NCBI GenBank assembly: GCA_030019365.1
Contig: JASEFA010000004.1
Coordinates: forward strand, 35,262 to 99,261
Reading direction: 5' to 3'
Length of the DNA: 64,000 nt
From: Bacillota bacterium
GTDB taxonomy: Bacteria > Bacillota > Sulfobacillia > JACIYH01
The position numbers and the translations under genes were made by a program. The notes below the pieces were generated by a model, which was given only the letters and a program-made list of their open reading frames with translations, was not told where the DNA came from and did no database searches. This document shows, one piece after another, positions 1 to 37,063 of the stretch. Position 1 is the first letter of the stretch, and each line of letters opens with the position of its first letter.

Positions 1-288
1 GCGTGGGAGACGCTGGAGTGGCTCAGGAGCGCGATTAACGCCGCCTGGGAGAGGAGACACGAGCTGTCACCGGCCTGCCCGGACCGGCGGGCACCTGGCG
101 CCCTGGAGGTGTGGAGGCTGCTGCCGCGCACCAACTGCCGGCGGTGCGGGGAGCTTACCTGCATGGCGTTCGCCGCGAGGCTGGTCATGGGGGAGCAGCG
201 GCTCTCGGGCTGCCCCGCCCTGGGGGAGGCCGGGTACGCCTCCGCCCGGGAGGCCCTGGAGGAACTGGTGGGTGAGGGTGCGTGGTGA
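1..288 (+). CDS. 3' end of a gene (partial at window edge) encoding a putative Fe-S cluster domain protein (PF04060-like CxxCGxxxC motif)
   Basis: Frame-3 translation reads ...RLLPRTNCRRCGELTCMAFAARLVMGEQRLSGCPALGE... and ends at TGA 286-288. This is clearly paralogous to the LLPRSNCGRCGEPACLAFAAKVASGERGARDCPVL segment of ORF 10892..11842. The motif resembles the N-terminal 4Fe-4S domain of corrinoid Fe-S protein / RnfB-type proteins (established knowledge, not searched). Confidence 0.45.
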   Translation, partial: AWETLEWLRSAINAAWERRHELSPACPDRRAPGALEVWRLLPRTNCRRCGELTCMAFAARLVMGEQRLSGCPALGEAGYASAREALEELVGEGAW

Positions 289-1075
289 AGGGGCCCGGGG
301 GAGGAGGGCCGTGGGGACCATGCCGCGAGCCGGATCCCGGGGGGCGGGAGCCTGGCGCCGGGTCGAGGAGATGCTGGCCGGGGACGGACCGGTGGTCGTG
401 AGCCTGGCCCCCTCTTACGTGGCGGCGTTCGAGGCCTCTCCCGGGCAGGTGGTGGCGGCGCTGCGGTCGCTGGGTTTCCGGGTGGTGGAAGAGACCGCCT
501 CGGTGCTGGGGGAGATGATCAGGCGGCGGGAGGAGATGGCGCGGGAGGCGGTCCCGGTCCTTTCGGGTTCGTGCCCGGTGGTAAGGCGCCTGATCGCCGG
601 GGAGTTCCCGTGGCTGCTTCCCCGGGTCGAGCCGGCTTCCGCCATGGGGCTTCACCTCGCCCGGCTCAGGTACCGGTACCCGGGTGCGCGTGCGGTCTTC
701 CTGGGGCCGTGCGAGGCCAAGCGCCTGCTGCCCGAGCCCGTGCAGCCGGACGCGGTGCTCACCTTCCGGGAAGTGGCGTCCTGGTGGTACGCCAGGGGAA
801 TCGACCCCGGGCGGTGCGAGCCCTCGGTGCCCGACCGCACGGCGGACGCCCTGGCCCGTATCTCGGTGGCCGTGGTTCACGCAAGTGGGCTGGAGGAATG
901 CCGCCGGATGCTTTCCCGGGTCAGCGCCGGTCCCTGGGAGGGACTGCCCTACCTGGAGATCACCGCCTGCCCCGGCGGGTGCCTGAACGGGCCGGGGATG
1001 CCGCCGGCGGACGCAGGGGAGCGCCGGCAGAAGGCAGTGCAGTACGCCATGGAGGCGGAGTTGTGCCTCCGCTAA
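272..1075 (+). CDS. [FeFe]-hydrogenase large-subunit C-terminal (H-cluster-like) domain protein; more likely start is ATG at about 320
   Basis: ORF-track protein contains FLGPCEAKRLL (like the MPCxxKxxE L2 motif) and EITACPGGCLNGPGMP (like the ExMACxGGCxxGGGQP L3 motif), plus a degenerate L1 (SGSCPVV). It overlaps the upstream Fe-S-domain gene by 17 nt in another frame, so the two may be one gene broken by a frameshift. Confidence 0.55.
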   Translation: MRVRGEGARGRRAVGTMPRAGSRGAGAWRRVEEMLAGDGPVVVSLAPSYVAAFEASPGQVVAALRSLGFRVVEETASVLGEMIRRREEMAREAVPVLSGSCPVVRRLIAGEFPWLLPRVEPASAMGLHLARLRYRYPGARAVFLGPCEAKRLLPEPVQPDAVLTFREVASWWYARGIDPGRCEPSVPDRTADALARISVAVVHASGLEECRRMLSRVSAGPWEGLPYLEITACPGGCLNGPGMPPADAGERRQKAVQYAMEAELCLR

Positions 1076-1093
1076 GCCGGCGGGAGGTGTGAG

Positions 1094-1372
1094 GTGTTGG
1101 CGGTAGCAAGGCTCAATGTCGAGCTGGGAGGGGGCCTCGGGCGGCTGGTGGGCAAGGAGAGCGTGGAAGTGGAGCTGGACCTTCCCGCGCGCAGGGAGGA
1201 GGTGATCTCCGCCCTGGCGGAGCAGGTACCGGAGTTGTCGCGCCTGCTGGGCACGGGGGAAGCGGCGAGGTCCCTGGTGGCCGTGAGCGTGGGGGGCGTG
1301 GTGCTGCGCGAAGGGCAGGAGGTCGGCCCCGGGGACTCCGTGTCGGTGTTCATGGCCTTTGCCGGAGGGTGA
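1094..1372 (+). CDS. MoaD/ThiS-family small sulfur-carrier protein
   Basis: 92-aa protein ending ...VFMAFAGG followed directly by a stop. The C-terminal Gly-Gly is the hallmark of MoaD/ThiS beta-grasp carriers. Its stop overlaps the next gene by 4 nt. Confidence 0.55.
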   Translation: MLAVARLNVELGGGLGRLVGKESVEVELDLPARREEVISALAEQVPELSRLLGTGEAARSLVAVSVGGVVLREGQEVGPGDSVSVFMAFAGG

Positions 1373-1878
1373 GGGGGGAGAGCGTGATACCGGGAGTGCG
1401 CCTGGTGGTGGTGGGGGGCGTGGAGGTGGGCCTCATCGGCCTGGACGAGGCCTTCGCGGAGCTCGAGGCGGCCGGGATCGTTGACCCCGAGGGACGCAAG
1501 GCTTTCCTGCTCTCCCGCGTCAAGGAGAAGAACTACGTGCCTGGGCGCAGGGAGGTGGCCTACGCGGAGGCGCTGCTCGAGGAGTACCTGGTGTGGAAGG
1601 GGGAGCGGCCGCCGCGGAAGAGTGCGGTCCCCAAGGTGAAGGTGCTGGGGCCGGGATGCCCCAACTGCCAGGCGCTGGAGCGCCTGGTGCTGGACGTCCT
1701 GGGCGAGCTGGGGGTGGGGGTTGACTTCGAGCACGTGCGCGACCCGCGGGAGATAGGGCGGTTCGGGGTGTTCGCCTCGCCCGCGCTGGCGGTGGGGGAC
1801 CGCCTGCTCGTGTCGGGGCGGGTGCCGCGCCGGGAGGAACTGAAGAGGATGCTGCAGGAGGCCCTGGAGTCGCGCTGA
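1369..1878 (+). CDS. Two-domain protein with C-terminal thioredoxin-fold redox-active disulfide domain (CPNC; TM0996/MTH895-like); N-terminal domain unassigned
   Basis: C-terminal ~80 aa KVKVLGPGCPNCQALERLV...FASPALAVGDRLLVSGRVP aligns with the stand-alone thioredoxin-like ORF 6499..6735 (MKIEVLGPGCQKCQALLKNV...). Likely start is GTG ~1384 after GAGGGGGGAGAG. It is translationally coupled to the MoaD-like gene. Confidence 0.5.
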   Translation: MRGESVIPGVRLVVVGGVEVGLIGLDEAFAELEAAGIVDPEGRKAFLLSRVKEKNYVPGRREVAYAEALLEEYLVWKGERPPRKSAVPKVKVLGPGCPNCQALERLVLDVLGELGVGVDFEHVRDPREIGRFGVFASPALAVGDRLLVSGRVPRREELKRMLQEALESR

Positions 1879-2928: not shown

Positions 2929-3114
2929 TCAGCTGTCCTTCTCCTTCGGGTCGTCGGCCTGTCCGGCGCGCCCGGCGCCGGAGTCCTTCTGCTCCTTTGG
3001 CGCCTCCTCGGGTTCCTCGACGATGCGGACTCCGCAGCAGCAGGACCCGCCGCCGCCCAGGAGGCGCCGCCACAATCCTTGGTTACCCTTTGACTTCCCG
3101 GGCAAATCCGGCAT
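2929..3114 (-). CDS. Small Gly/Cys-rich protein with consecutive CCC triplet (GGGGSCCCG), unknown function
   Basis: 61-aa ORF with an excellent RBS (GGAGGTG, 7 nt, ATG). Its stop lies 26 nt before the permease start, and it sits exactly between padR and the permease on the same strand. It shares the Gly-flanked CCC motif with ORF 12410..12601. Confidence 0.45.
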   Translation of the reverse strand: MPDLPGKSKGNQGLWRRLLGGGGSCCCGVRIVEEPEEAPKEQKDSGAGRAGQADDPKEKDS

Positions 3115-3547
3115 CCACTTTCACCTCCACCGTCTCCCGTTCACCCTCGAGCGCCCGCTGCACGAGGGGTACCACCTCCGCCCAGGCCTGTGCCGCCGCC
3201 CGGTACGCCTGCTCCCCCCGCGGGGTGAGGCGGTACACCCGCCGCCGGCGCGCCCCGGTGAAGTCGGGCCGGCTTTCCAGGTAACCCTCCCGCTCCATCT
3301 CGTCCAGGAGGGGGTAGACCGTGGCCAGGGTGGGGGTGCAGCAACCGGAGGTCAGGGTGCTGAGCTCCCGTACCGCCGCGTAGGCGTGGCGGGGGGCGCG
3401 GTGGAGCACCATGAGGAGGAAGAACCGGGACAGGCCCAGGTTTATCTGGTGTTTCCAAAACTCCTTGCTGGTGAGCTCCGGCACCACAGCTTGCCCCCCG
3501 ATATATAGGTATCCTACGCATCCCTTATACCACCGGCGACAGGGCAT
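3083..3547 (-). CDS. PadR-family transcriptional regulator with Cys-containing N-terminal extension
   Basis: Winged-helix core ...LSRFFLLMVLHRAPRHAYAAVRELSTLTSGCCTPTLATVYPLLDEMEREGYLESRPDFTGARRRRVYRLTPRGEQ is typical PadR. The ~35-aa N-terminal extension MPCRRWYKGC... suggests the start may differ. Confidence 0.7.
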   Translation of the reverse strand: MPCRRWYKGCVGYLYIGGQAVVPELTSKEFWKHQINLGLSRFFLLMVLHRAPRHAYAAVRELSTLTSGCCTPTLATVYPLLDEMEREGYLESRPDFTGARRRRVYRLTPRGEQAYRAAAQAWAEVVPLVQRALEGERETVEVKVDAGFAREVKG

Positions 3548-3644: not shown

Positions 3645-4334
3645 CTATGCTGACCAGGCGTAGTAAAGGCCGAAGCCGATGAGCACTAAGCCGGCCGCCT
3701 TTTCGAGCCATGAGGTCCAGCGGGAGATGAGGGGCACCTGTTTTAGGGCTGCGGTGAAGGTGGCGGCCAGTGTGAGGGGCGCGCCCCTGCCCAATCCGTA
3801 GGCGAATAGCAGGCCGGTACCGAAGGCCAGCTTGCCCTGGGCCATGACAAGGGTGAGGATGGCTAGCAGGACCGGCGTTGCGCACTGGGAGCCGGCCACG
3901 CCGAGCACGAGGCCGAGGAAGAAAGCTCCCGCGAGGCCGCCGGCGGGGAAGCGCCTGAGCGAGCGCAATCCGACCGACGGCAGGGACACCTGCACTAGGC
4001 CGGCGAGGTGCAGGCCGGCGAGGATGCTGACGGCAGCCGCCAGGTAGTAGAGGACGGTTCGGGAAAAGCCCAGCAGGCCGCCCAGGGTGGCTGCGGCAAC
4101 CCCCATCATGGTGAAAGTGACCGACGTGCCCAGGGTGAAGGAAACGCCCAGCCAGAACCCCTTCCACCCCGCCGCTTCGCGCTGCCCCGTGGTATACGCC
4201 ACGAGGAGAGGGATGATGGAGAGGTTGCATGGACCCAGGCTGGTGACGAGGCCGCCGAAGAACGCGAGGGCGAAAGCAACGGCCGCATGGCCGCCGGTGA
4301 GGTGGGCAAGGTGGCGGGCCAGGGTGGCCTCCAT
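3645..4334 (-). CDS. ccdA: Cytochrome c-type biogenesis protein CcdA (DsbD-like transmembrane thiol-disulfide transporter)
   Basis: Polytopic membrane protein with the two conserved Cys in TM helices (LGPCNLSIIPLL and GSQCATPVLL). It has the size and hydropathy of CcdA. Confidence 0.75.
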   Translation of the reverse strand: MEATLARHLAHLTGGHAAVAFALAFFGGLVTSLGPCNLSIIPLLVAYTTGQREAAGWKGFWLGVSFTLGTSVTFTMMGVAAATLGGLLGFSRTVLYYLAAAVSILAGLHLAGLVQVSLPSVGLRSLRRFPAGGLAGAFFLGLVLGVAGSQCATPVLLAILTLVMAQGKLAFGTGLLFAYGLGRGAPLTLAATFTAALKQVPLISRWTSWLEKAAGLVLIGFGLYYAWSA

Positions 4335-4706
4335 CTAGCTGCCTCCCGCGAGTCGGGTCAGGGCAGCGCGCATCTCTTCAACAGGTATGACGCCGACAGC
4401 CCTGGCTACCACCTGTCCGGATTTATCGAGCAGGAACGTGGTGGGAATGAACTGAACGCCGTACTGCCGGACCAGATCCTCCTCCGTGCGGTCTTCCACG
4501 TTGACGGAGACGAACGCCACCCTGCCCTCGAACTCCGGGCGCAGGCGGTCAAACACTGCCTCCATCTCCTTGCACGGCTCGCAGTTGGAAGAGTGGAAGA
4601 GCAGCCATACCGGGAGGCCGCGCTGCCTGGCTGCGGCGAGCGCCGCCCGGGACGGACTGGATGGGCTTTCGGTTTCGCCCCGGTGAGCCAGCTGTTTTCC
4701 CACCAC
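4335..4706 (-). CDS. Thioredoxin-fold thiol:disulfide oxidoreductase (TlpA/ResA-like), possibly membrane-anchored
   Basis: WLLFHSSNCEPCKEMEAVF... contains a CxxC active site. The frame stays open upstream through a hydrophobic stretch (LLVPLALLLALTAIVV) without an obvious canonical start, so the N-terminus is uncertain. It is immediately downstream of ccdA, a classic pair. Confidence 0.6.
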   Translation of the reverse strand: MVGKQLAHRGETESPSSPSRAALAAARQRGLPVWLLFHSSNCEPCKEMEAVFDRLRPEFEGRVAFVSVNVEDRTEEDLVRQYGVQFIPTTFLLDKSGQVVARAVGVIPVEEMRAALTRLAGGS

Positions 4707-4853
4707 GATGGCGGTTAGGGCGAGGAGAAGGGCGAGCGGGACGAGGAGGCGTCCCGCTCTTGACCTGGCGAAGCTGCTGCCCGGCAGGTGGCATCACCCC
4801 TCTTACTTGGAAGCGGCTTCCCGGTGATCCCGGTGGGCACCCGAGGTGGCGCC

Positions 4854-5999
4854 TCACGAGCGCCACGCCGGGGTGACGTCCGGGCGGTAGTAGCGGCGGT
4901 GGAACGCGAGGGCCACGTTGACCAGCGCCAGCATCACCGGGACCTCTATGAGGGGACCGATGACGGCGGCGAAGGCCTGGCCGGAGTTGAGCCCGAACAC
5001 CGCCACCGCCACCGCGATGGCCAGCTCGAAGTTGTTGCTGGCGGCGGTGAAGGAGAGGCTGGTCGTCTGCGGGTAGTTCACCCCGAGGCGCATGCTGAGG
5101 AAGAAAGACGCCAGGAACATGACGACGAAATAGACGATGAGGGGTATGGCTATCCTGACCACATCCAGGGGCAGCCTGACGATGTATCCGCCCTTGAGGG
5201 AGAACATGACCACGATGGTGAAGAGGAGGGCTATGAGGGCCAAGGGGCTAATGCGGGGGACGAACCGCTCCTCGTACCATTTCTCGCCCTTGAGGGGTGC
5301 GAGGATGGTCCTGGTGAGGAAGCCGGCCACGAAGGGGATGCCCAGGTAAATGGCAACGCTCTTCGCCACCTCGCCGATGGTGACGTGCACCACGGCACCT
5401 TTCAGTCCGAAGACGGTGGGGAGGATGGTAATGAACACGTAGCTATAGACCGAGTAGAAGAACACCTGGAAAAGGGAGTTGAATGCCACCAGGGCGGCGG
5501 CGTACTCGCTATCGCCCCGCGCCAGGGCGTTCCACACGATGACCATGGCGATGCAGCGGGCCAGGCCGATGAGGATGAGCCCCACCATGTATTCGGGGTA
5601 GTTGCGCAAAAAAGTGATGGCCAGGATGAACATCAGGATGGGGCCGATGATCCAGTTCTGGACGAGAGACAGGGCGAGCACCCGGGTGTTGCGGAACACC
5701 TTGCCCAGTTCACCGTACCTGACCTTGGCCAGGGGAGGGTACATCATGACGATGAGGCCGACGGCGATGGGGATAGAGGTGGTGCCGACTGACAGCCTGT
5801 CAAGCAGGTCAGCCACCCCGGGGAACACGTACCCCAACGCCACCCCGGCGGCCATGGCCAGGAGTATCCACAAGGTGAGCAGGCGGTCGAGCAGAGAGAG
5901 CCCGATGGTACGGTTCTCGGCCAACGGAGCTGCCACTCCTTTCCGAGTGTGCTTCTCCCGCCGGTCTGGCGGGCTATCACTCATTGAGCATATCTTCAT
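4854..5999 (-). CDS. acr3: ACR3-family arsenite efflux transporter
   Basis: [34 protein letters not shown] (conserved ACR3 Cys) and [20 protein letters not shown] are diagnostic ACR3 motifs. It has ~10 TM segments. The start is probably a few codons inside the ORF (MSDSPPD...). Confidence 0.85.
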
Positions 6000-6008
6000 C
6001 CTCTTCCT

Positions 6009-6024
6009 GTGTCAAGTGCTTGAC
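6009..6024. promoter_or_regulatory. Near-perfect palindrome TGTCAAGTGCTTGACA in the acr3 / arsR divergent intergenic region; candidate ArsR/SmtB operator
   Basis: 7-bp inverted arms TGTCAAG / CTTGACA separated by 2 nt. It sits between divergently transcribed acr3 and arsR. Confidence 0.4.
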
Positions 6025-6046
6025 AGGTTCCTCTCAGTAGAGTATC

Positions 6047-6457
6047 TTGAAGCTAAGCATATATTCCAAGATGGTGGTGGCTTCTGTGACGGAGGGTTTA
6101 CTCGAGCAGATGGCGGCGGTGCTGAGAGCCCTGGGGCACCCGGCTAGGTTGCGGATCGTGGAGTTCCTGGTCGATGGCGACCTGTGCTCGGGGAGGGACT
6201 GCTCGGGGGAAAAGTGCGTCTGCGAGATCATCCCTGCCCTGGGCATGGAGCAATCGAGCGTGTCCAAGCACCTGGCCATCCTGCGGGACCGGGGTATCGT
6301 CAACTTCAGGCGGGAAGGGACGCGGACGTTTTACTCGCTTGCCGACCCCCGGGTGCTGGAGATACTCAGGCTGGCCCGGGAGGTGTGTATCGGCCACCTG
6401 AGCCGGGCGGAGAAGGTGCTTGCCGAGGCGCGGCGTGTTGACGGTAGCGGATTATGA
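6047..6457 (+). CDS. arsR: ArsR/SmtB-family metalloregulator (arsenite-type CVC site)
   Basis: LGHPARLRIVEFL...EKCVCEIIPALGMEQSSVSKHLAILRDRGIV is an ArsR helix-turn-helix with the ELCVCDL-type As(III)-binding CVC motif. Extra Cys are present (DLCSGRDCSG). A later start at ATG ~6070 is possible. Confidence 0.8.
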   Translation: MKLSIYSKMVVASVTEGLLEQMAAVLRALGHPARLRIVEFLVDGDLCSGRDCSGEKCVCEIIPALGMEQSSVSKHLAILRDRGIVNFRREGTRTFYSLADPRVLEILRLAREVCIGHLSRAEKVLAEARRVDGSGL

Positions 6458-6498
6458 TGATATATTCATAACGCTAATCAAGGACAGGAGGTGCGGCG

Positions 6499-6735
6499 GT
6501 GAAGATCGAGGTTCTGGGACCGGGCTGCCAGAAGTGCCAGGCGCTGCTGAAGAACGTGACGGAGGCCCTGGCCGAGAGCGGCCGGGAGGCGGAGGTCGTG
6601 AAGGTCGAGGACGTGTTCGAGATCATGCAGCGGGGCGTCAACCACACCCCGGCCATAATCATCGACGGCGAGCTGAAGCTCCAGGGCCGGGTGGCCACGG
6701 TGCGGGAGATCACAGGCTGGATTACAGGAAAGTAA
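6499..6735 (+). CDS. Small thioredoxin-family redox-active disulfide protein (TM0996/MTH895-like)
   Basis: 78 aa, MKIEVLGPGCQKCQALLKNV... has a CxxC active site. It starts at GTG after AGGAGGTG. This family is classically encoded beside DUF318 permeases. Confidence 0.7.
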   Translation: MKIEVLGPGCQKCQALLKNVTEALAESGREAEVVKVEDVFEIMQRGVNHTPAIIIDGELKLQGRVATVREITGWITGK

Positions 6736-6817
6736 GGAGGTAATGGCCACCTGCGGGTGGCCTTTTACCGGCCCGCGATTATGAACGGTTTCTCATAGGG
6801 GAAAGAGGGCGGAGATC

Positions 6818-7999
6818 GTGGCAGAGTTACGCAAGTTCTTCTGGCTGCTCGGGGCATTCCTTGCCGCCTACTTCGTGCCGTTCGGGCACCCGCGGGTGTC
6901 AGGGGCCATCCTGGAAGCCTTCCACATGCTGCAGGAGTACGCGCGCCAGCACGTGCTCCTGTGCCTGGTGCCGGCCCTGTTCATCGCCGGGGCGATCGCG
7001 AACTTCGTGTCGCAGGCTTCGGTGATCAAGTACTTCAGCGGGCAGGCCAAAAAGTGGCTTTCGTACTCGGTGGCCTCGGTCTCGGGGACCATCCTGGCGG
7101 TATGCTCGTGCACGGTGCTGCCCTTGTTTGCGGGGATATACCAGCGGGGGGCGGGGCTGGGTCCTGCCATAGCGTTCCTTTACTCGGGGCCGGCCATCAA
7201 CATCCTGGCCATCATCCTGACGGCCAGGGTGCTGGGGTGGAAGCTGGGGCTGGCGAGGGCGCTCGGTGCGGTGTTCTTTTCGGCGGTGATAGGGCTGATC
7301 ATGGCGTACATTTACCGCCACGAGGAGAAGCAGCGCACGGAGGCGGTGTCGCAGCGGGTAGCGGAAGCGATGAGGCAGAAAGAGGCCCGGAGCGGGGCGC
7401 AGAACCTTTTGTACTTCGCGGCCATGGTCGGTATCCTGGTGTTCGCCAACTGGGGGAAGCCGGCGCAGCCGGTGGGGTTCTGGAACGCGGTGTTCGAGGT
7501 CAAGTGGTACATTACGGGAGCGCTCTTGGTCCTCCTCGCCTATATGCTGGCCAGGTGGTTCCGCCGGGCCGAGCTTTCTTCCTGGGTGAGCGCCACCTGG
7601 GGTTTTGCCGGGCAGATCATACCGCTTCTTTTTGCGGGTGTGCTGGCCGCGGGGGTTCTCATGGGCCGGCCGGGCACGGATGCCGGGCTGATTCCGTCGC
7701 GGTGGATCGAGGCTGCGGTGGGCGGCAACTCCCTGCGGGCGAACCTGCTTGCTTCGGTGGCCGGGGCGCTGATGTACTTCGCCACGTTGACGGAGGTGCC
7801 CATCCTGCAGGGGCTGTTAGGGTCGGGGATGGGGCAGGGTCCCGCCCTGGCCTTGCTTCTGGCGGGCCCGGCTCTTAGCCTGCCCAACATGCTGGTGATC
7901 CGCAGCGTGATCGGCACGAAGAAGATGCTGACGTACGTGGGCCTGGTGGCGGTGATGGCCACGCTCACGGGGATGATCTTCGGGGCGATAGTGGGCTAG
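6818..7999 (+). CDS. DUF318/PF03773-family permease (ArsP-like)
   Basis: 393 aa, polytopic, with ILAVCSCTVLPLFAG (CSC motif) and GWKLGLARALGAV. It is a paralog of the permease at 2009..2901. Confidence 0.7.
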   Translation: MAELRKFFWLLGAFLAAYFVPFGHPRVSGAILEAFHMLQEYARQHVLLCLVPALFIAGAIANFVSQASVIKYFSGQAKKWLSYSVASVSGTILAVCSCTVLPLFAGIYQRGAGLGPAIAFLYSGPAINILAIILTARVLGWKLGLARALGAVFFSAVIGLIMAYIYRHEEKQRTEAVSQRVAEAMRQKEARSGAQNLLYFAAMVGILVFANWGKPAQPVGFWNAVFEVKWYITGALLVLLAYMLARWFRRAELSSWVSATWGFAGQIIPLLFAGVLAAGVLMGRPGTDAGLIPSRWIEAAVGGNSLRANLLASVAGALMYFATLTEVPILQGLLGSGMGQGPALALLLAGPALSLPNMLVIRSVIGTKKMLTYVGLVAVMATLTGMIFGAIVG

Positions 8000-8024
8000 C
8001 CCGGGTGAGCGGGAGGCGAGGCGG

Positions 8025-8504
8025 GTGGCGGAGATCGTGTACCTGGGCCTGGCCGGGGTGCTGCTTCTGGTTTCATGGAGGAAGGACCGGGGCACCACCC
8101 GGCGGGCACTGTCCATCACCCTGGCCACGTTCAAGAAGACCATGCCCTTCATCCTCCTCGTATTCGTGCTGATGGGCGTAGCTCAGGCTTACGTGCCACG
8201 TTCGGTCATCGCTGCCGTCCTGGGTGGTCACAGTGGACCCCTGGCCGTCCTCTACGGGGAGGCGGTGGGCTCGGTGGCCCTCATCCAGCCTTCTGCCGTT
8301 TTCCCCTTTGCCGGATATCTTCTGGCCAACGGGGCGAGCATAGGGGCCCTGGCGGGGTTCATCCTCACGGCCATACTGATCGGCGTCTCCACGCTGCCCA
8401 TCGAGGTGAGCATGCTGGGGTTGCGGTTCACGGTGGCGAGGAACGTGCTGACGTTTGTGGCGGTCTTCCTGGTGGCGCTGGCGATGGGGGCGATCCTGTC
8501 ATGA
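8025..8504 (+). CDS. Half-size permease-like membrane protein (split DUF318-type permease, first gene of pair)
   Basis: 159 aa, ~4-5 TM segments, ...MLGLRFTVARNVLTF... It is a paralog of ORF 12729..13208 and related to the C-terminal repeat of the fused permeases. Confidence 0.5.
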   Translation: MAEIVYLGLAGVLLLVSWRKDRGTTRRALSITLATFKKTMPFILLVFVLMGVAQAYVPRSVIAAVLGGHSGPLAVLYGEAVGSVALIQPSAVFPFAGYLLANGASIGALAGFILTAILIGVSTLPIEVSMLGLRFTVARNVLTFVAVFLVALAMGAILS

Positions 8505-9025
8505 AGAAGCTTGACTCTTCCCTGGCCAGTCTGGTGGCGGCGGGCGTGCTGGCGGGATCGGTCTGGCTGGTTTCGCCGGCACGGGGCGCGGTGGTGGTGC
8601 ATGTGGCCTGGAATGCTCTTGCCATCTCGTGGCTCATCATCCTGAGCGTGTTCGTTTACATCGGGCTCTTACAGGCCTGGGTGAAGCCGGCGGCCATGGC
8701 CAGGTGGCTGGGTAGGAGCTCGGGGGCGAAGGGATTTGCCCTGGCTTCCACGCTGGGCATATTCCTGGGCGGGTCGCTGGTGACGGTGTTCCCCCTGCTG
8801 GCAGCCTTGCGGCAGAAGGGGGCCAGGGTCGGTGTGCTGGCCGCGCTGGTGACGGCTTGGGGAGGGAAGGCTCCGCTGCTGCCGCTGGAAGGCCGGTTCC
8901 TGGGGTGGCAGTTCGCCCTGGTGCGCATGGTCATGGTGATGCTGATGGCAGCTCTTGTGGGGGTGGGAGTGGAAAGGCTTGTGGGAGAGCGGCAGGAAGG
9001 TGGCACCAGCAGCGTGCCCGGGTGA
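8501..9025 (+). CDS. Half-size permease-like membrane protein (split DUF318-type permease, second gene of pair)
   Basis: Starts at ATG 8501 overlapping the upstream stop (ATGA). Sequence VMKKLDSSLASLVAAGVLAG...EGRFLGWQFALVRMVMVML is a paralog of ORF 13205..13780. It lies inside the longer track ORF 8075..9025. Confidence 0.5.
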   Translation: MKKLDSSLASLVAAGVLAGSVWLVSPARGAVVVHVAWNALAISWLIILSVFVYIGLLQAWVKPAAMARWLGRSSGAKGFALASTLGIFLGGSLVTVFPLLAALRQKGARVGVLAALVTAWGGKAPLLPLEGRFLGWQFALVRMVMVMLMAALVGVGVERLVGERQEGGTSSVPG

Positions 9026-9109
9026 CGCGCGAGATGCAGTCACCCAAGGGCAGACGGCCGGCAGGGGGACAGAGAAAGCAGTAGTTCTCACAGGGGAGGA
9101 GATAAGGAA

Positions 9110-9586
9110 ATGACGCAGCCCATGGAATGGCAGCCCGGGATGGTCACGCACGAAAACGCGATCTTCGTGTGCTTCGGCGGCCTTTCGAACACGGGGTACA
9201 TCACCGCCCTGGCGGGGATGGAAGCGGTGCGGAGGGTGGGTCTCAAGAAGGCGGCCATCTTCTGCCTGGCGGGACTTCCGGTGGAAGTGAAGATGGTGCT
9301 GGCCAAGGCGAAGGCGGCGAAAAAGATCATCACGGTGGATGGCTGTGCCAACAACTGCGCGAAGAAGCTGGTCGAGGCGGCGGGCTTTCCCATCACGAGG
9401 TCAATCACCCTGGCCGTGGACCTGGGGGTGAAGAAAGTGCCGCTGCACAGGGATCTGGACGGCGAGCCCAAGGATGTGATGGAGTACATCTCCCAGGAGG
9501 ACGTGGCCAGGACGGTCGAGGCCATACTGGCAGCGATTGAAGGCGAGGAGCCTGCCGCGGCCTCCGCATCCGGGGGTGAAGCGTGA
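9110..9586 (+). CDS. DGC-domain protein (putative zinc-binding)
   Basis: ...KIITVDGCANNCAKKLVEAAG... matches the DGC motif/cysteine pattern of PF08859-like proteins. RBS is GGGGAGGAG. Confidence 0.55.
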   Translation: MTQPMEWQPGMVTHENAIFVCFGGLSNTGYITALAGMEAVRRVGLKKAAIFCLAGLPVEVKMVLAKAKAAKKIITVDGCANNCAKKLVEAAGFPITRSITLAVDLGVKKVPLHRDLDGEPKDVMEYISQEDVARTVEAILAAIEGEEPAAASASGGEA

Positions 9587-10404
9587 TGCTGGCTGGGCCT
9601 GCCGGTGAACGCGCAGAGTGCGGGGGCGTCCTGCGGGATCTGTACGGCCACGTCATGTCTTCCCTGCGGCCGAAGACCTTTCCCTTCGGGGTCAAGCTTT
9701 ACCGCAGCCTGGACGAGCGACCGCCTGGGCTTTTGTCCCCGCGGCACCCCATGAACGTGTGCCAGGTGACAGCTCTGGTCCGCTACTACGGGCGGTGCAT
9801 GTACGCCACCTGGCAGGACATGGCGTGTGTGGTCGGCGCGGTGGCCCTGGGCATGATGGAGCCGCCGGAAAACATGCGGTCGGGGAAGATCGCCGAGATG
9901 CTGCACGCGGACCTCGATTCCGCGCGCCGCTTCACGGAACTGGTTCCGCGCATTCCGGCGGGGACTGTCAAGGCTTTTGCCGCGGCGCCGCTCGACCGGT
10001 TGACGTTTGAACCCGATATGGTGGTGATGTACGCGAACACGGCCCAAGCGGTGAGGGTGGTACAGGCCTATCTTTACCGGCGGGGAGGACGGGCGGCCTT
10101 CAGCACGGGTGGCGAATACAGCCTGTGTGCGGACATCATCGCGGAGACGTACACCAAGCACGACTTCGCTCTCGCCATCCCCTGTTTCGGGGACCGCAAG
10201 ACGGCCCTGGCGCAGGACGAGGAGCTGACGGTGGCCTTCCCTGCCGACATGGCCCAGGAGATACTGGACGGCCTGGTGGGCACGGCGAAGACGGCTGCCT
10301 ACCCGACGCCCGTGGACATAGGCTTTCCCCAGATGCCCGATTACACCCTGACGGATTGGGCGGTAGCCTTCCGTCGGGGGAAGGTGGGTTCCGGGCCCGG
10401 TTAG
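9583..10404 (+). CDS. DUF169 (COG2043-like) family protein
   Basis: 273 aa with overall resemblance to DUF169/ArCR proteins (recalled, not searched). It overlaps the DGC gene by 4 nt. Confidence 0.45.
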   Translation: MMLAGPAGERAECGGVLRDLYGHVMSSLRPKTFPFGVKLYRSLDERPPGLLSPRHPMNVCQVTALVRYYGRCMYATWQDMACVVGAVALGMMEPPENMRSGKIAEMLHADLDSARRFTELVPRIPAGTVKAFAAAPLDRLTFEPDMVVMYANTAQAVRVVQAYLYRRGGRAAFSTGGEYSLCADIIAETYTKHDFALAIPCFGDRKTALAQDEELTVAFPADMAQEILDGLVGTAKTAAYPTPVDIGFPQMPDYTLTDWAVAFRRGKVGSGPG

Positions 10405-10455
10405 GGGGGAGGTTGCCGGGAGACCTCGGGGGGCAATCGGTCTTCAGTGGCGGGC

Positions 10456-10481
10456 GGGAGGCACGGCCAGTTGTGCCTCCC
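10456..10481 (+). terminator. Perfect 9-bp stem-loop GGGAGGCAC-N8-GTGCCTCCC without U-tract
   Basis: Seen directly between the DUF169 gene and the MvhD-like gene. GC-rich hairpin; no poly-T follows. Confidence 0.25.
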
Positions 10482-10529
10482 GGATCGCTATGGGGTCTGA
10501 GGTGCGCTGTGGCGGGAGGAGGCGATACC

Positions 10530-10892
10530 TTGCGGAGGCCGCGGGTCTTGCTGTGCGTGTGCCGGGGGTGTCCCGGTTTTGAGCGGGTCGATGCCTGGAC
10601 CCTGGTTAATCGCCTTCGAGACAACCCTGACGTGGAATTCGCGGTGGCGCACCCCCAGCTTTGCGGTGACGATGGGCTGCGTTTCCTGGCCGACCTGGTT
10701 CGGCCGGCCGTCACGTACCTCGTGGGAGCGTGCGATCCCGCCCTGCAGCGCAAGATGTTGAAGGAAACCTTTACCGCTGCCGGTGTGAGCTTTGACGGGC
10801 AGGTGGTGCCCCTCGACCTGCGCAACATGACGACCGAAGAAGCTGCGGAGAAAGTGGCCGAGGCGGTGAGGGCGCTCAGGGCCGGACAATAG
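10530..10892 (+). CDS. MvhD/FlpD-like Cys-rich small protein (methyl-viologen-reducing hydrogenase delta subunit family)
   Basis: Internal TTG start after GGAGGAGG gives MRRPRVLLCVCRGCPGFERVDAWTLVNRLRDNPDVEFAVAHPQLCGDDG...LVGACDP. The Cys spacing is PF02662-like. It lies inside track ORF 10125..10892. Confidence 0.4.
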   Translation: MRRPRVLLCVCRGCPGFERVDAWTLVNRLRDNPDVEFAVAHPQLCGDDGLRFLADLVRPAVTYLVGACDPALQRKMLKETFTAAGVSFDGQVVPLDLRNMTTEEAAEKVAEAVRALRAGQ

Positions 10893-11842
10893 TGGCGGAC
10901 CGGAAGGGGTACTGTGGACTGCTGGTTGAGGGGGGTACGTGCGGTGCTGGAGAAGTACTCGATCAGGATCGTCCTGCCGGAATGAATCCTGCCGCCCCCA
11001 CCGTGAACGCCATCTTCGACCTGGAAGAGGACATATCGGAGTTGTTGCCGTACCTGAATGCGACGCTTCAGGGGTGCTTCTATGAACCTACCGGGCCTTA
11101 TCTGAGGTTCATGAAGGAGGGCAAGGCTGTCACGCTGCATGCCCGGCAGGTTACCATCACGCGGCTGGAGGATGAAGAAGAAGCCCGGCGGGTCATGGAG
11201 TGGCTGGTGGAGGTTATCCGCAGCACGCATGCCAACCGTGACAGGATCCAGCCCAGCCACCGGCGGCGTGCTGAGTTGAAGGTGCTGGACGTTTACAGGC
11301 TGTTACCCCGGTCCAATTGCGGCCGCTGCGGCGAACCCGCCTGCCTGGCGTTTGCGGCGAAGGTGGCCTCAGGTGAGCGCGGGGCCCGTGACTGCCCGGT
11401 TCTCTGCGAGCCGGGAAATGAGGAAAGGCTTGCCCGGCTGGAAGAAGCGTTGGGCCAGGGGGAATGCTGGCCGGACCAAGGGGGAAAAGTGATGCATCCC
11501 GAGGAGTACAGGTACAGCAAGACGCACGAGTGGGCCAAGGTTGAGGGTGACCTGGTGCGGGTGGGCCGAGGCCCGGCTGGACTGGTCCGGGGCTGCCGGT
11601 CGCGACGGTGGAGCCTGAGGCGTGCCAGCAAACGGCGGAGCTGGCCCACAAAAGCGCCCGGGCTGGCCACGTGGTGCTTCGCGGGGTCGGGGGCGGGGTG
11701 GGGGCGTATGGCCATCACATCCCGCGTCGCGCCCGGCGTTCTGCATCGCTATACGCCCTGTGAGCTCGAGATCAACCGCGAGGCAGTGCACGTCATGGAT
11801 AATCACCATGAGGGTGATCTGACACTTACTGGCAAGTCATAG
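10892..11842 (+). CDS. Fe-S cluster domain protein (PF04060-like), with a C-terminal region that looks like a frameshifted glycine-cleavage H-protein-like remnant
   Basis: Residues ~130-180 YRLLPRSNCGRCGEPACLAFAAKVASGERGARDCPVLCEPGNEERLARLEEAL are paralogous to the window-start gene. From ATG ~11494 the sequence MHPEEYRYSKTHEWAKVEGDLVRVG matches the conserved GcvH N-terminus, then similarity is lost in all frames. Gene boundaries are uncertain. Confidence 0.4.
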   Translation: MADRKGYCGLLVEGGTCGAGEVLDQDRPAGMNPAAPTVNAIFDLEEDISELLPYLNATLQGCFYEPTGPYLRFMKEGKAVTLHARQVTITRLEDEEEARRVMEWLVEVIRSTHANRDRIQPSHRRRAELKVLDVYRLLPRSNCGRCGEPACLAFAAKVASGERGARDCPVLCEPGNEERLARLEEALGQGECWPDQGGKVMHPEEYRYSKTHEWAKVEGDLVRVGRGPAGLVRGCRSRRWSLRRASKRRSWPTKAPGLATWCFAGSGAGWGRMAITSRVAPGVLHRYTPCELEINREAVHVMDNHHEGDLTLTGKS

Positions 11843-11914: not shown

Positions 11915-11969
11915 TTGACGGCGGTGCCGGGACCGGGTATAATCGTGCTGATAAGTGTACATTGCACTT
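11915..11969 (+). promoter_or_regulatory. Consensus sigma-70-type promoter TTGACG-17 bp-TATAAT followed by imperfect palindrome AAGTGtacattgCACTT (candidate PadR operator) upstream of padR
   Basis: Hexamers at ~11915-11920 and ~11938-11943 with a 17-nt spacer. Palindrome at ~11953-11969. RBS GGAGGG and ATG 11987 follow. Confidence 0.45.
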
Positions 11970-11986
11970 AGGAGGGTGAGCCACTG

Positions 11987-12382
11987 ATGTGCGGCGAGCA
12001 TGGCCGCGGTTTCCGCGCGGGCGCCTGCGGCTGTCATGACCGGCGGGGGGAGAGGTTCCTGGAAGCGTGGCTGCTTCTGCTTTTGAAGAGTGGCCCGTCC
12101 CATGGTTACCAGCTGGTGGAACGCCTGGGCCAGGTGCTGGGCGGAAGTGGGTTTCCGGACCCCGGTACGGTGTACAGGAACCTGCGGCGAATGGAGGAGG
12201 AAGGGCTGGTGAGTTCGAGCTGGGACCTCCAGGACAGCGGCCCGCCGCGCCGTCTGTATCGGCTGACCGAGCAGGGCGAGGAGTTGCTCCACGTGTGGGC
12301 TGCGAACGTGGAACATTACCGGGCCCGGCTTGACCGGTTCCTCGGGATGTACCGCGAGCTTGCGGGCGATTCCCGGGGCTAG
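11987..12382 (+). CDS. PadR-family transcriptional regulator with Cys-rich N-terminal extension (MCGEHGRGFRAGACGCH)
   Basis: Core ...WLLLLLKSGPSHGYQLVERLGQVLGGSGFPDPGTVYRNLRRMEEEGLVSSSWDLQDSGPPRRLYRLTEQGEELL is typical PadR. The N-terminal extension resembles the N-terminus of the next small protein. Confidence 0.7.
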   Translation: MCGEHGRGFRAGACGCHDRRGERFLEAWLLLLLKSGPSHGYQLVERLGQVLGGSGFPDPGTVYRNLRRMEEEGLVSSSWDLQDSGPPRRLYRLTEQGEELLHVWAANVEHYRARLDRFLGMYRELAGDSRG

Positions 12383-12409
12383 GCCCGGTTCAAAAAGGAG
12401 GAGAGAGGT

Positions 12410-12601
12410 ATGTGTGGTAGCAGGCAGCACGGCTGGCACGAGTTCGCCGGCGCCGGAGGGTGTTGTTGTGGCGGTGGCATGCGCCGCCGGTTCTTCAGCA
12501 AGGAAGAGCGGTTGGCCAGGTTGCGCGACTACCTGGAAGAGCTGAAAGCGGAAGCCCAGCAGGTGGAAAAAGTGATCCGCGAACTCGAGTCCGAAAAGTG
12601 A
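12410..12601 (+). CDS. Small protein with Gly-flanked CCC triplet (AGAGGCCCGGG) and charged coiled-coil-like tail, unknown function
   Basis: 63 aa with a strong RBS (AAAAAGGAGGAGAGAGGT ATG). It lies between padR and the split permease pair. It shares the motif with ORF 2929..3114. Confidence 0.5.
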   Translation: MCGSRQHGWHEFAGAGGCCCGGGMRRRFFSKEERLARLRDYLEELKAEAQQVEKVIRELESEK

Positions 12602-12728
12602 AAACCGGCCTCGAACTCACCGGCGGCATCCGGGCGGTCCTGGCGGCCGCCCGGAGCTTAATGCCGTTGGGTGCCGGGGTTGCCGTATTGCCACGGCAGG
12701 TTGGCGGCGGAGGGAGTGGAGTGGTAGC

Positions 12729-13208
12729 GTGGCGTTCAACCTGGCGCTGTATGCTGTGTCGGCAGTGGTGGTCCTTGTTTCCGCGCTGCGGGACCGGGGT
12801 AAGACACGCCAGGCGCTGGCCGTTGCCTGGCGTTCGTTTTGCCGGGTTGCCCCTTCCATGCTGGGCATCATGGGGCTCATCGGGCTGGTGCTGACTCTGA
12901 CTCCGGCGAGCACGATAGTCACCCTGTTTAACAACCAGAACGTTTGGGGCATCTTGCTGGTTGCCGCCGTCGGGGCGGTGACGCTGATCCCCGGGATCAT
13001 CGCCTATCCCCTAGCGGGTTCCCTGGTGCGCCAGGGAGCGGGGGTGGTGCCGATCGCGGCGTTCATGACCACTCTCATGATGGTCGGCGTGGTAACCGCT
13101 CCCCTGGAGAGCCACTATTTCGGCCGGCGTTTCGCGCTCCTCCGTAACGGCCTCAGTTTCATTGCCGCGTTGGCCATAGCGGCCGCCATGGGGGTGGTGC
13201 TGGGGTGA
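12729..13208 (+). CDS. Half-size permease-like membrane protein (split DUF318-type permease, first gene of pair)
   Basis: Paralog of 8025..8504 (...HYFGRRFALLRNGLSFIAALAIAAAMGVVL). It starts at GTG with GGAGGGAGTGGAGTGG upstream. Confidence 0.5.
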   Translation: MAFNLALYAVSAVVVLVSALRDRGKTRQALAVAWRSFCRVAPSMLGIMGLIGLVLTLTPASTIVTLFNNQNVWGILLVAAVGAVTLIPGIIAYPLAGSLVRQGAGVVPIAAFMTTLMMVGVVTAPLESHYFGRRFALLRNGLSFIAALAIAAAMGVVLG

Positions 13209-13780
13209 GCCCTGGCGGTCGATTGGGGACGAAGCTGGCGAGGCTGCGGCCGTACGCCCTCCTCATTCTCACGCTTGTGGGCGATCTGGCCCTGGGTGTG
13301 GTGAGGCCCGGGCTGGGGTGGCAGGCCGTGCGGACGTCCGCTTCTTACCTGTTGGAAATGCTGCTGGTGCTGCCCCCCATCTTCGTGCTGATCGGCATGC
13401 TGGAGGTGTGGGTTCCCCGGCAGACCATCGTGCGCAACGTGGGCCCCGGGTCCGGACTGCGCGGGCTGGCACTCTCTGTTTTGACCGGGTCTGCTGCTGC
13501 CGGGCCGCTCTACGGGGCCTTTCCCGTGGCCGAGTCTTTGCTCAGGAAGGGTTGTTCGGTATTCAACGCGTGCGTGCTGCTCTGCACCTGGGCGGCGGTG
13601 AAAATCCCCATGATCATGATGGAGGTGAAGTTCCTGGGCTGGCGGTTTTCCCTGGCCCGGCTGGCCTTCACGCTGCCGGCCATCGTGCTCATAAGCTGGC
13701 TGGTGGATCGCTTCACGCCTCGCCTGGGTGGGTTGTGCGGAGAAGACCGGCCTGGGGTGGGTCGGGAGATGCCGCGGTGA
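13205..13780 (+). CDS. Half-size permease-like membrane protein (split DUF318-type permease, second gene of pair)
   Basis: 4-nt overlap with the upstream gene. ...KFLGWRFSLARLAFTLPAIVLISWL is a paralog of 8501..9025. Confidence 0.5.
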   Translation: MSPGGRLGTKLARLRPYALLILTLVGDLALGVVRPGLGWQAVRTSASYLLEMLLVLPPIFVLIGMLEVWVPRQTIVRNVGPGSGLRGLALSVLTGSAAAGPLYGAFPVAESLLRKGCSVFNACVLLCTWAAVKIPMIMMEVKFLGWRFSLARLAFTLPAIVLISWLVDRFTPRLGGLCGEDRPGVGREMPR

Positions 13781-13813
13781 CGTCCGGGGTGCGGGGTTAA
13801 GGAGGCAGGGGCA

Positions 13814-14128
13814 ATGCACGTTGCCGACATACTGGCGGAAAGGGAATTCTCACCTCAAGACAAGGTGCGCAAGGAGATCTACCGTTCCGGAGCCGCCAAG
13901 GTCCTTTTGATCTGCTTTGAGTCCGGTCAGGCACTGGAACCCTGCGTCATGGGTGCCGAGGTAGTGTTCTACGTGGTAGAGGGAACCGGTCGCATCAGGG
14001 TGGAATCGACCACAGTGGACGTGCGCCAGGGTTCCCTCGTGGTCGTTCCTGCCGGGCTGGAGCGCCAGATCGAGGCGTGCTCCCCCATGGTGGTGCTGGC
14101 CCTGCAGGCCCTTGGCCAGGGGGGATAG
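13814..14128 (+). CDS. Cupin-domain protein
   Basis: 104 aa with a two-motif cupin-like pattern (VLLICFESGQALEPCVMGAEVVFYVVEGTGRIRVE...LVVVPAGLE). Confidence 0.6.
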   Translation: MHVADILAEREFSPQDKVRKEIYRSGAAKVLLICFESGQALEPCVMGAEVVFYVVEGTGRIRVESTTVDVRQGSLVVVPAGLERQIEACSPMVVLALQALGQGG

Positions 14129-17039: not shown

Positions 17040-17158
17040 AAATACGGCGCTGTGTTCGAAGGTGGGTGCAGAGGCCGTTTCCTGGTGAGAGTCGGCGGGC
17101 CGATTTGTGTCGGGAGGCGAACTGACCCGGAGACCTGCAAGTGCAAGGAGGTGCCAGG

Positions 17159-19005: not shown

Positions 19006-19437
19006 ATGCCGCTGGTGAGGGTGCGGCTATATGCTTCCTTGAGGGAATACGCCCCGGAGGGTTTCCGGAGCGAGGGCTTCACCGTGCAGCTTCCCCCGGC
19101 GAGCACTGTGGCTGACCTTTACGCGCGGCTGGGCCTGCCTGAGGAACAGGTCAAGCAGGCGTTCGTGAACGGCAGGCGGGCGGAACCCGACAGGGTGCTG
19201 GAGGACGGGGATGAGGTGGGGGTGTTTCCACCCATCGCCGGGGGAAGCGGGGAGGAGCGGAGCTGGCGTGCTCGCCGAGCGGGTGTACAGGGAGGATATC
19301 GAAGGGGGAGTCCTGCTTCACCGCGCACGCCCGGATCTGCGCAGGCTGTACGTGGAGTTGACCAGCCGGTGCCGGGGCGGATGCGTAGCATGTGTGAGGA
19401 GATCGTGGGACGAGCCCGTGGGGGATATGTCCGTTGA
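19006..19437 (+). CDS. MoaD/ThiS-like sulfur carrier (AOR-associated) whose Gly-Gly is not followed by a stop
   Basis: MPLVRVRLYASLREYAPEGF...EDGDEVGVFPPIAGG is a MoaD-type beta-grasp ending in GG at ~19248, but the frame stays open to 19437. RBS GGAGGGA is 7 nt before ATG 19006. Confidence 0.5.
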   Translation: MPLVRVRLYASLREYAPEGFRSEGFTVQLPPASTVADLYARLGLPEEQVKQAFVNGRRAEPDRVLEDGDEVGVFPPIAGGSGEERSWRARRAGVQGGYRRGSPASPRTPGSAQAVRGVDQPVPGRMRSMCEEIVGRARGGYVR

Positions 19438-29120: not shown

Positions 29121-29162
29121 ACTCGGATCGGCAGCTGCCCTTCCCCTGGGGCAGCCTTCTTC

Positions 29163-30368: not shown

Positions 30369-30380
30369 CGAGGTGGTGCA

Positions 30381-36975: not shown

Positions 36976-37063
36976 CGCGTATCGGCGCAGGTGCCCAAAG
37001 CGGGTAGGTCGGGGGTCGGCCGCTCCTGCGGCAGGCCCAGTTTTTTGGGGGGCCTGAGCGGAG

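Follow-up and report, generated by a model that had tools for sequence, protein, structure and literature searches.

Gene content of the locus

The DNA analysed here, referred to as the window, is a stretch of 64,000 nucleotides (nt) from contig JASEFA010000004.1 (positions 35,262 to 99,261) of the Bacillota assembly GCA_030019365.1, and its GC content is high (63–72%). Near its left end an arsR gene and a divergently oriented acr3 gene share a short intergenic spacer, and the arsR arm continues into a string of genes for small thioredoxin-like, permease, iron-sulfur (Fe-S) and uncharacterised cysteine-containing proteins. Judged by its gene families, this locus appears to be an ars operon that is extended by a conserved, uncharacterised Fe-S/thiol module. 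An initial annotation had described the region as an arsenic-type resistance unit within a larger redox/permease cluster. This description is borne out when the families are assigned from a listing of open reading frames (ORFs) together with Pfam and NCBIfam profile scans of the window ORFs, and all genes named in the annotation were recovered at or near their annotated positions (Table 1).

Table 1. Features of the acr3/arsR locus, with coordinates in the window; profile scores are in bits, followed by the cut-off of the model where given
Feature	Coordinates	Strand	Characteristics and evidence
ccdA	3645-4334	-	DsbD_TM PF02683, 78.3 vs 27.1
Thioredoxin-fold gene	4335-4706	-	123 residues, CEPC motif; Thioredoxin_2 PF13098, 52; PF00085, 44
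acr3, predicted arsenite efflux permease	4854-5999	-	TIGR00832 equivalog, 463.2 vs 282.8; PF01758, 201
Perfect 9-2-9 palindrome, candidate ArsR operator	6008-6027		CCTGTCAAG-TG-CTTGACAGG; read from the sequence
arsR, ArsR/SmtB repressor	6047-6457	+	NF033788, 90.3 vs 55; PF01022 (HTH_5), 53.8
Small thioredoxin	6499-6735	+	78 residues, CQKC (GPGCQKC); TIGR00412 'MTH895/ArsE family', 96.3 vs 62; PF13192 (Thioredoxin_3), 89.5
Full-length ArsP_1 (DUF318) permease	6818-7999	+	393 residues, membrane CSC motif; PF03773, 256.3 vs 32.3
halfA, half-size ArsP_1 permease	8025-8504	+	matches N-terminal half of PF03773; 4-nt overlap with halfB
halfB, half-size ArsP_1 permease	8501-9025	+	matches N-terminal half of PF03773
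DGC-domain protein	9110-9586	+	PF08859, 66.1 vs 27
DUF169 protein	9583-10404	+	PF02596, 188.7 vs 27; overlaps DGC gene by 4 nt
X	10530-10892	+	120 residues, five conserved Cys; no Pfam family; predicted HdrA N-terminal [4Fe-4S]-domain fold
PF04060 'FeS' protein	10892-11488	+	PF04060, 47.6 vs 23; starts just past the end of the region as initially annotated
In-frame read-through of FeS ORF	11489-11842	+	GcvH N-terminal fragment, then about 90 codons of non-homologous sequence

On the plus strand, arsR is followed in order by genes for a Thioredoxin_3 protein, an ArsP_1 permease, the half-size permeases halfA and halfB, a DGC-domain protein, a DUF169 protein, a protein designated X and a PF04060-type FeS protein. 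The thioredoxin, the ArsP-like permease, the split permease pair and the DGC, DUF169 and Fe-S proteins had all been recognised before, and the profile scans confirm these assignments. The genes had also been described as co-directional with short or overlapping junctions, in agreement with the measured junctions of -4 to +125 nt (41, 82, 25, -4, 84, -4, 125 and -1 nt, from arsR to the FeS gene). Start and stop codons overlap at the halfA/halfB, DGC/DUF169 and X/FeS junctions, and translational coupling is predicted inside this string.

The ArsR protein carries the CVC site that had been ascribed to it: with NF033788 matched above its cut-off, the cysteine pair could be read in helix alpha-3 (GEKCVCEIIPAL, reading GEKCVCEII, compared with ELCVCDL of the R773 ArsR). 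It also contains a rare insert of 10 residues, DLCSGRDCSGEK, which bears two further cysteines and which, in an alignment of the ArsR proteins from related loci (see below), is common only to the window and its closest relative, L026. The probable start codon of arsR is the ATG at 6071. Acr3 covers positions 1–327 of the 327 of the TIGR00832 profile, and its true start codon probably lies downstream of 5999.

Next to acr3, on the same strand, lie a thioredoxin gene and ccdA, encoding a DsbD-type transmembrane thiol-disulfide electron carrier, the start of which abuts the stop codon of the thioredoxin gene. Both genes and their position had been annotated correctly; the designation of the thioredoxin as TlpA-like did not hold. 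In its first 40 residues, as read from the sequence, there is no hydrophobic segment that could serve as membrane anchor or signal peptide, and generic thioredoxin models match it best, while the Redoxin model scores 20 bits, under its cut-off, and AhpC-TSA is borderline (26.2 against 26 bits). A TlpA-like identity could thus be ruled out, and the protein is likely to be cytoplasmic.

The full-length permease covers positions 4–293 of the 294 of the PF03773 profile. Membership of the SO_0444 Cu/Zn exporters (106.9 against a cut-off of 300) and of the SaoE proteins of the SAO system (105.3 against 325) was ruled out. There is no cysteine in either halfA or halfB. The DGC protein, an exact match to MDI6894554.1 (named 'putative zinc-binding protein' at NCBI), has four cysteines, located in the sequences VCFGG, FCLAG, DGC and NNC. 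In the DUF169 protein, C60, C82, C182 and C201 are invariant within its subfamily. No hidden homology was detected among the DGC, X, DUF169, Trx_3 and FeS proteins when alignments derived from the loci were compared by hhalign (all probabilities below 1%).

That the canonical arsC and arsM genes are absent from the window had been stated previously, and tblastn and Pfam scans agree on this. The best tblastn match to ArsC, with B. subtilis and R773 ArsC sequences as queries, had an E-value of 0.1, and Pfam scans of some 65 ORFs from across the entire window detected no methyltransferase (arsM). The genes arsA, arsD and arsB are also absent at the locus, and no arsI, arsH or nitroreductase gene was found among the Pfam-scanned ORFs of the window.

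Regulatory region and transcription signals

The divergent arrangement of acr3 and arsR around a TGTCAAG-N2-CTTGACA palindrome had been noted before; this is exact, and the inverted repeat is in fact longer, with perfect arms of nine nucleotides separated by two. By simple arithmetic, the chance expectation of even a perfect 7+7 inverted repeat in the 47-nt spacer is about 0.002, and no second copy of the palindrome with up to three mismatches occurs in the 64-kb window. A scan for promoter-like sites, which are consensus matches only, identified TTGACA-17-TATCTT at 6020-6048 on the plus strand and TTGACA-17-TATGCT at 6015-5987 on the minus strand. The palindrome arms coincide with the TTGACA -35-like hexamers of these two back-to-back sites, and therefore one bound dimer could silence both promoters.

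At the arsR stop codon, the junction between arsR and the thioredoxin gene (6438-6471, plus strand) is AT-rich and contains an imperfect palindrome, TATGA-N8-TCATA, which overlaps a promoter-like site with a TG-extended -10 (TTGACG-17-TATATT, 6438-6466). This patch could serve the small thioredoxin gene and those following it, either as an internal promoter or as a second operator. Between 6467 and 11914, neither promoter-like sites nor, in the intergenic spacers, terminator-like sites were found in the consensus scan, and the co-directional string is delimited by the next strong promoter-like site (11915-11943), which precedes a PadR gene. Co-transcription of the genes past 7999 with arsR is plausible, because of the start/stop codon overlaps and the lack of promoter- and terminator-like sites in the spacers.

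The spacer between the DUF169 gene and X contains a GC-rich hairpin on the plus strand (10455-10482) with a stem of 11 bp that is not followed by a U-tract; the surrounding 136 nt (10400-10535) fold at -68.3 kcal/mol, with a z-score of -3.65 relative to shuffled sequences. A comparable GC-rich hairpin without U-tract, with a 10-bp stem as judged by eye, is found on the minus strand in the spacer between acr3 and the thioredoxin gene (4734-4759). Both hairpins may be attenuators or processing/stability elements.

Protein X resembles the N-terminal domain of HdrA

Protein X had been labelled MvhD-like, a designation that is not borne out. It has no NCBIfam match and no Pfam match even at E-values up to 10, and hence no match to PF02662. 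A family of 191 proteins could be collected at E <= 1e-5, each of about 120 residues and with the five cysteines conserved. An AlphaFold (AF2) model of X has a pLDDT of 93, and a Foldseek search with this model retrieved the HdrA N-terminal domain in six PDB entries, with TM scores of 0.66–0.71 and E-values of about 1e-4. MvhD chains gave TM scores of 0.46–0.51, with E-values from 5e-3 to 1.6e-2.

The sequence profile of the X family points in the same direction. Among 1.84 billion proteins its matches are mostly stand-alone proteins, and it also matches the N-termini of a few proteins of 319–698 residues with HdrA architecture (hmmsearch E-values from 2e-4 to 1e-3). In one HdrA-MvhD fusion (P0340), the profile aligns with residues 1–97 and not with the FlpD domain at 570–691. 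An MvhD/FlpD identity was thus rejected in favour of the better-fitting HdrA N-terminal domain, and X is predicted, from profile and model, to be a free-standing homologue of this Fe-S domain with a putative cluster site.

In the related loci retrieved with X (L026–L105, see below), X nearly always adjoins one or two genes for small 2x[4Fe-4S] ferredoxins with an extra N-terminal domain (33 of 34 loci); the ferredoxin gene follows X in 53 loci and precedes it in 36. The window has no such ferredoxin gene beside X, and the PF04060 gene occupies that place.

Conservation of the gene neighbourhood

Two sets of related loci were retrieved independently. With the DUF169 alignment as anchor, 18 genome loci were collected, which were then searched with profiles of the window proteins. 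Homologues of the DUF169 protein at 60–74% identity occur in many uncultured anaerobes, and the loci stem from about ten phyla, including Chloroflexota; they represent Thermanaerothrix, Anaerolineales, Aminicenantes, Melioribacter, Cytophagia/Bacteroidetes, Eubacteriales, Hydromicrobium, Brocadiaceae, Bathyarchaeia, Bipolaricaulota and Atribacterota. They carry the same partner families as the window, as illustrated by the orders Acr3-ArsR-Trx3-ArsP-DUF169 (L012), ArsR-Trx3-ArsP-DUF169 (L008) and ArsR-ArsP-Trx3-X-DGC-DGC-DUF169 (L014). A minimal module is found in L025, where CcdA-Trx-Trx3 is divergent from ArsR-DGC-FeS.

With the X alignment as anchor, 80 metagenome loci were retrieved, of which 34 are non-duplicate and have at least 8 kb of flanking DNA. 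Within 10 kb of X in these 34 loci, the most frequent families are ferredoxin (33), ArsR (28), CcdA (21) and Trx_3 (20), followed by DUF169, ArsP and Thioredoxin (14 each), Acr3 (9), DGC (8), ArsC of the LMW-PTP type (7), half-permeases and ArsD (5 each) and PF04060 (4). An arsenic-specific marker, i.e. Acr3, ArsC or ArsD, is present in 18 of the 34. Several same-strand successions recur among the related loci: Trx3 to X in 21 cases, Trx to CcdA in 19, ArsR to X in 18, ArsP to Trx3 in 17, ArsR to ArsP in 16, halfA to halfB in eight, DGC to DUF169 and X to halfA in six each, and X to FeS as well as Acr3 to Trx to CcdA in three each. Gene order nevertheless varies between loci. Almost all ArsR proteins of the related loci have CVC or CxC in helix alpha-3.

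The accessory genes are linked to ArsR, Trx_3 and ArsP across phyla. Conserved neighbourhoods of homologues, the lack of which would have spoken against the annotated cluster, were found in both anchor sets and in many phyla. Since unrelated lineages show the accessory families together with ArsR, Trx_3 and ArsP, the extension of the operon is not a chance neighbour.

The FeS gene and its read-through

In the FeS protein, an alpha/beta domain at the N-terminus precedes a CX2CX4CX16C motif, of which C143, C146, C151 and C168 are invariant among homologues; the PF04060 family to which it belongs includes the CFeSP large subunit and RnfB. The homologues have 174–213 residues and end at about residue 200 of the window protein. 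In the read-through that follows, a GcvH fragment of about 25 residues is encoded at 11498-11551 (tblastn E = 0.002; NF002270 matches residues 202–225 of the FeS ORF), and the remainder of gcvH is absent 3' of this fragment in all three frames. An identical FeS-GcvH structure is present in L024, a contig with 99% identity, and because L024 originates from another sample, an assembly error can be ruled out. The read-through has the appearance of a deletion scar, suggesting that a gcvH-like gene formerly followed the cluster and was then deleted.

Other genes in the window

The redox/permease theme extends on both flanks of the ars locus. The left end of the window (1-1878) encodes the C-terminal portion of another PF04060-family protein (1-285), followed by a protein with a domain like that of the Fe-only hydrogenase large subunit, a ThiS-like ORF (1094-1372) and a protein of 169 residues with a C-terminal Thioredoxin_3 domain (1369-1878). 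At 2009-2901, on the minus strand and after a PadR gene (3083-3547), lies a third ArsP_1 permease gene with a CSCS motif. A frameshift divides it into residues 1–255, in the frame of 2077-2901, and about the last 38 profile positions, in that of 2009-2872, and it is probably a pseudogene.

To the right, the promoter-like site at 11915 (TTGACG-17-TATAAT) heads a separate unit (11915-14128), in which PadR is accompanied by a cupin and by another pair of half-size ArsP_1 permeases (12729-13208 and 13205-13780); the succession of cupin, half-permeases, Trx and CcdA is seen again in L010 and L059. Further on, DegV (15954-17039) and an aldehyde:ferredoxin oxidoreductase (17141-18916) have a radical-SAM/SPASM protein on either side (14340-15896 and 19211-20410), and radical-SAM/SPASM, PadR and DegV genes are also found near DUF169 or FeS in L001 and L002. 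Two lgt paralogues (prolipoprotein diacylglyceryl transferase) occur at 20492-21262 and 51424-52215. A Mu/Tn7-like transposition module (26593-31569) comprises an rve plus Mu-transposase-C protein, a TniB-like AAA_22 ATPase, a recombinase-zinc-ribbon protein and a second Mu-transposase-C fragment on the opposite strand, and is followed by a HicB/HicA toxin-antitoxin pair (32634-33097). The rest of the window is chromosomal housekeeping DNA (rimP-nusA-infB-rbfA, truB, ribF, pnp, dut, asd, dapA and RNase J), and its PNPase groups with proteins of Bacillota metagenome-assembled genomes. A minus-strand ORF of 1844 codons (36959-42493), G/R/P/H-rich and without Pfam match, was rejected as an antisense artefact over rimP-nusA-infB, as the plus-strand ORFs opposite to it match RimP, NusA and IF-2.

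Proposed function and alternative explanations

We propose that the locus, on the chromosome of an anaerobic, high-GC member of the Bacillota, confers metalloid resistance under the control of ArsR and has an Fe-S/thiol accessory arm with a possible electron relay, and we give this explanation about an even chance of being correct. The CVC-type ArsR would most likely bind the 9-2-9 palindrome over the -35 boxes of the two back-to-back promoters, and thiophilic metalloids, i.e. As(III), Sb(III) and possibly trivalent methylarsenicals (MAs(III)), would release it. The minus arm would provide acr3 for arsenite efflux, probably together with the thioredoxin and ccdA, and the plus arm would provide ArsR itself, the MTH895/ArsE-type thioredoxin, the CSC permease, the cysteine-free two-piece permease and the DGC, DUF169, X and FeS proteins. 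Export of As(III) and related species would fall to Acr3 and the CSC permease. A low-potential electron entry point could be formed by X and the PF04060 FeS protein, whose place is taken by a ferredoxin in most relatives, and DUF169 and/or DGC would hand the electrons on both to the small thioredoxin and to the thioredoxin/CcdA pair. The outcome would be either that metalloid-binding thiols are kept reduced, or that pentavalent or thiolated arsenic is reduced in a locus that has no ArsC. This relay from the ferredoxin level to thiol carriers is something we infer, and it is offered as a hypothesis and not as a finding.

A bolder version of this proposal is that X with ferredoxin or FeS, DUF169 and DGC constitute an unrecognised metalloid-processing system, driven by ferredoxin instead of by NADPH-thioredoxin or glutaredoxin, and a possible stand-in for ArsC. 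Its substrates for reduction might be arsenate, thioarsenate or pentavalent organoarsenicals, or else it might recycle arsenic-thiol adducts, and in strict anaerobes it would serve ArsR-controlled efflux by Acr3 and ArsP; we consider this quite speculative and would give it rather little credence.

Several observations weigh against the proposed metalloid-resistance locus or parts of it. The -10-like hexamers in the acr3-arsR spacer overlap the start codons of the longest ORFs of both genes, so that either the start codons lie further inside or these hexamers are not real promoters. The palindrome at 6008-6027 is absent from all 105 related loci, and the operator is therefore lineage-specific. 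The promoter-like site at 6438-6466 could uncouple the genes from trx3 to FeS from arsR. The 3' end of the FeS gene is damaged, its own stop codon being lost and the protein carrying an abnormal C-terminal extension of about 115 residues. For DUF169 and DGC no solved or recognisable homologue was found, and thus the relay step assigned to them is inference only. Finally, 16 of the 34 X-anchored loci have no arsenic-specific marker in the fetched DNA, and the recurrent neighbours include SufC, SufBD, a CDF exporter, TauE, PIG-L, a NifX-like protein and a CMAS-FeS_assembly_P fusion, which would fit a wider role in thiol, Fe-S and soft-metal metabolism.

The lack of such markers and the nature of these neighbours favour an alternative, namely a general island that serves the homeostasis of thiols, Fe-S clusters and soft metals. 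In this case the CxC-type ArsR would sense another thiophile (Cd, Zn, Cu, Hg, sulfide/persulfide or disulfide stress), the Trx_3 protein and permease, DGC, DUF169, X, FeS and CcdA would maintain or repair thiols and Fe-S clusters, and acr3 would be a mere add-on in some lineages. CxC sites in helix alpha-3 are also known from Cd/Pb/Zn sensors of the ArsR family such as CadC, the module occurs in two loci (L002 and L025) that lack an ars transporter, and among named proteins the permease is most closely related to the SO_0444 Cu/Zn and SaoE metal exporters. In addition, DUF169 adjoins a TauE-like permease in Desulfovibrio alaskensis G20 (PMC4001038). Nevertheless, an ACR3 equivalog shares its putative operator with arsR in the window, Acr3, ArsC or ArsD accompany X in the 18 other loci, far beyond chance, and the arsR-arsP-arsE-DGC operon of strain ND132 (see below) responds to arsenic. 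We therefore regard a general homeostasis island as possible, although somewhat doubtful.

The initial annotation had favoured an organo-metalloid or thiol-reactive substrate rather than plain arsenite. This was not borne out: a bona fide ACR3 shares the putative operator with arsR, and therefore inorganic As(III) is probably at least one of the substrates handled. A narrower variant would have the plus-strand operon dedicated to organoarsenicals (MAs(III), roxarsone and related compounds), with ArsP as exporter and the ArsE-like thioredoxin and Fe-S proteins transforming the substrate, leaving only inorganic As(III) to Acr3. The ArsP of Campylobacter jejuni indeed exports MAs(III) and trivalent roxarsone (Rox(III)), not arsenite, and coexists with Acr3 (PMC6205960); TIGR00412, matched by the small thioredoxin, is named 'MTH895/ArsE family', and ArsE is counted among the organoarsenical resistance proteins (PMC9144182); and the permease has a CSC motif. 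Against this, the window has no arsM, arsI, arsH or nitroreductase, the ArsP membership holds at the level of the Pfam family only, and two arsP clades have been described that probably differ in function (PMC6205960). An operon specific for organoarsenicals seems unlikely. That the genes 3' of arsP are unrelated neighbours with nothing in common except their orientation is very improbable: the 84- and 125-nt spacers could hide promoters, a stable hairpin lies at 10455-10482 and gene order differs from locus to locus, but both anchor sets, which were retrieved independently and span many phyla, show each family together with ArsR, Trx_3 and ArsP, and start and stop codons overlap inside the string.

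Our preferred explanation, a metalloid-resistance locus with an accessory Fe-S/thiol arm, places DGC, one DUF169 subfamily, X and PF04060 proteins, which co-travel with ArsR, a small thioredoxin and ArsP-type permeases in many uncultured phyla, in the concrete context of a thiophilic-metalloid regulon with Fe-S and thiol chemistry. Arsenic resistance of strict anaerobes is understood far less than that of aerobes, and ars genes are still being named. If low-potential reduction or thiol recycling for arsenic proves true, it would represent a new biochemical branch of the ars repertoire, with a bearing on arsenic speciation in anoxic sediments, digesters and aquifers. As a compact operon, the locus is a good lead for the function of DGC, DUF169 and the X family.

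Comparison with known systems

Like canonical arsR/acr3 operons, the window has an ACR3 equivalog, an ArsR/SmtB repressor of the CVC type and a palindromic operator-like site at the promoter. It differs from them in that acr3 is divergent from arsR and followed by a thioredoxin gene and ccdA, in the extension of the arsR arm, and in the lack of arsC, arsA, arsD and arsB.

The full-length permease resembles C. jejuni ArsP at the level of the family: both belong to PF03773, have a CxC-type cysteine motif in the membrane and are accompanied by Acr3. The window permease differs in being paired with a small thioredoxin; the C. jejuni arsP operon is not known to have such a partner. This pairing is found in the SAO locus, where an ArsP-family CSC permease (SaoE) is combined with a small thioredoxin (SaoT) (Haft & Gwadz, 10.1101/2022.07.06.499078). 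The SAO and SO_0444 systems share with the window the combination of an ArsP-family CSC permease and a small MJ0307/MTH895-like thioredoxin in anaerobes, whereas the MerB-like SaoL, the ABC importer and the selenoprotein of SAO have no counterpart in the window. For the two-piece permease, the adjacent half-size DUF318/UPF0718 genes SMU_746c/SMU_747c of Streptococcus mutans, which encode a two-component permease, present a similar arrangement to halfA/halfB; their context is acid tolerance, in contrast to the ArsR operon in the window.

Protein X is predicted to have the same fold as the HdrA N-terminal domain (PDB 5ODC, 7BKB and 8RVY), and the cysteines conserved in its family would be compatible with an Fe-S site. 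Unlike the subunits of heterodisulfide reductase complexes it stands alone: the window encodes neither a flavoprotein nor an HdrB or HdrC subunit as partner for it, and X occurs beside ArsR and ferredoxin genes, not in clusters for methanogenesis or sulfur oxidation. In the literature searched, no link of DUF169 or the X family to ArsR or ArsP was found; DUF169 has been placed near HgcAB-context genes in Nitrospina.

The closest known system is an operon of Pseudodesulfovibrio mercurii ND132, arsR5-arsP-arsE(PF13192)-DGC(PF08859), which is up-regulated by As(III) and As(V), and which is the sole experimentally arsenic-induced relative in the literature searched (bioRxiv 10.1101/2022.10.17.512643). 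The same four families are combined in the window in one predicted ArsR-headed operon, with the thioredoxin gene preceding arsP, and the window adds to them the split permease pair, DUF169, X and the PF04060 protein.

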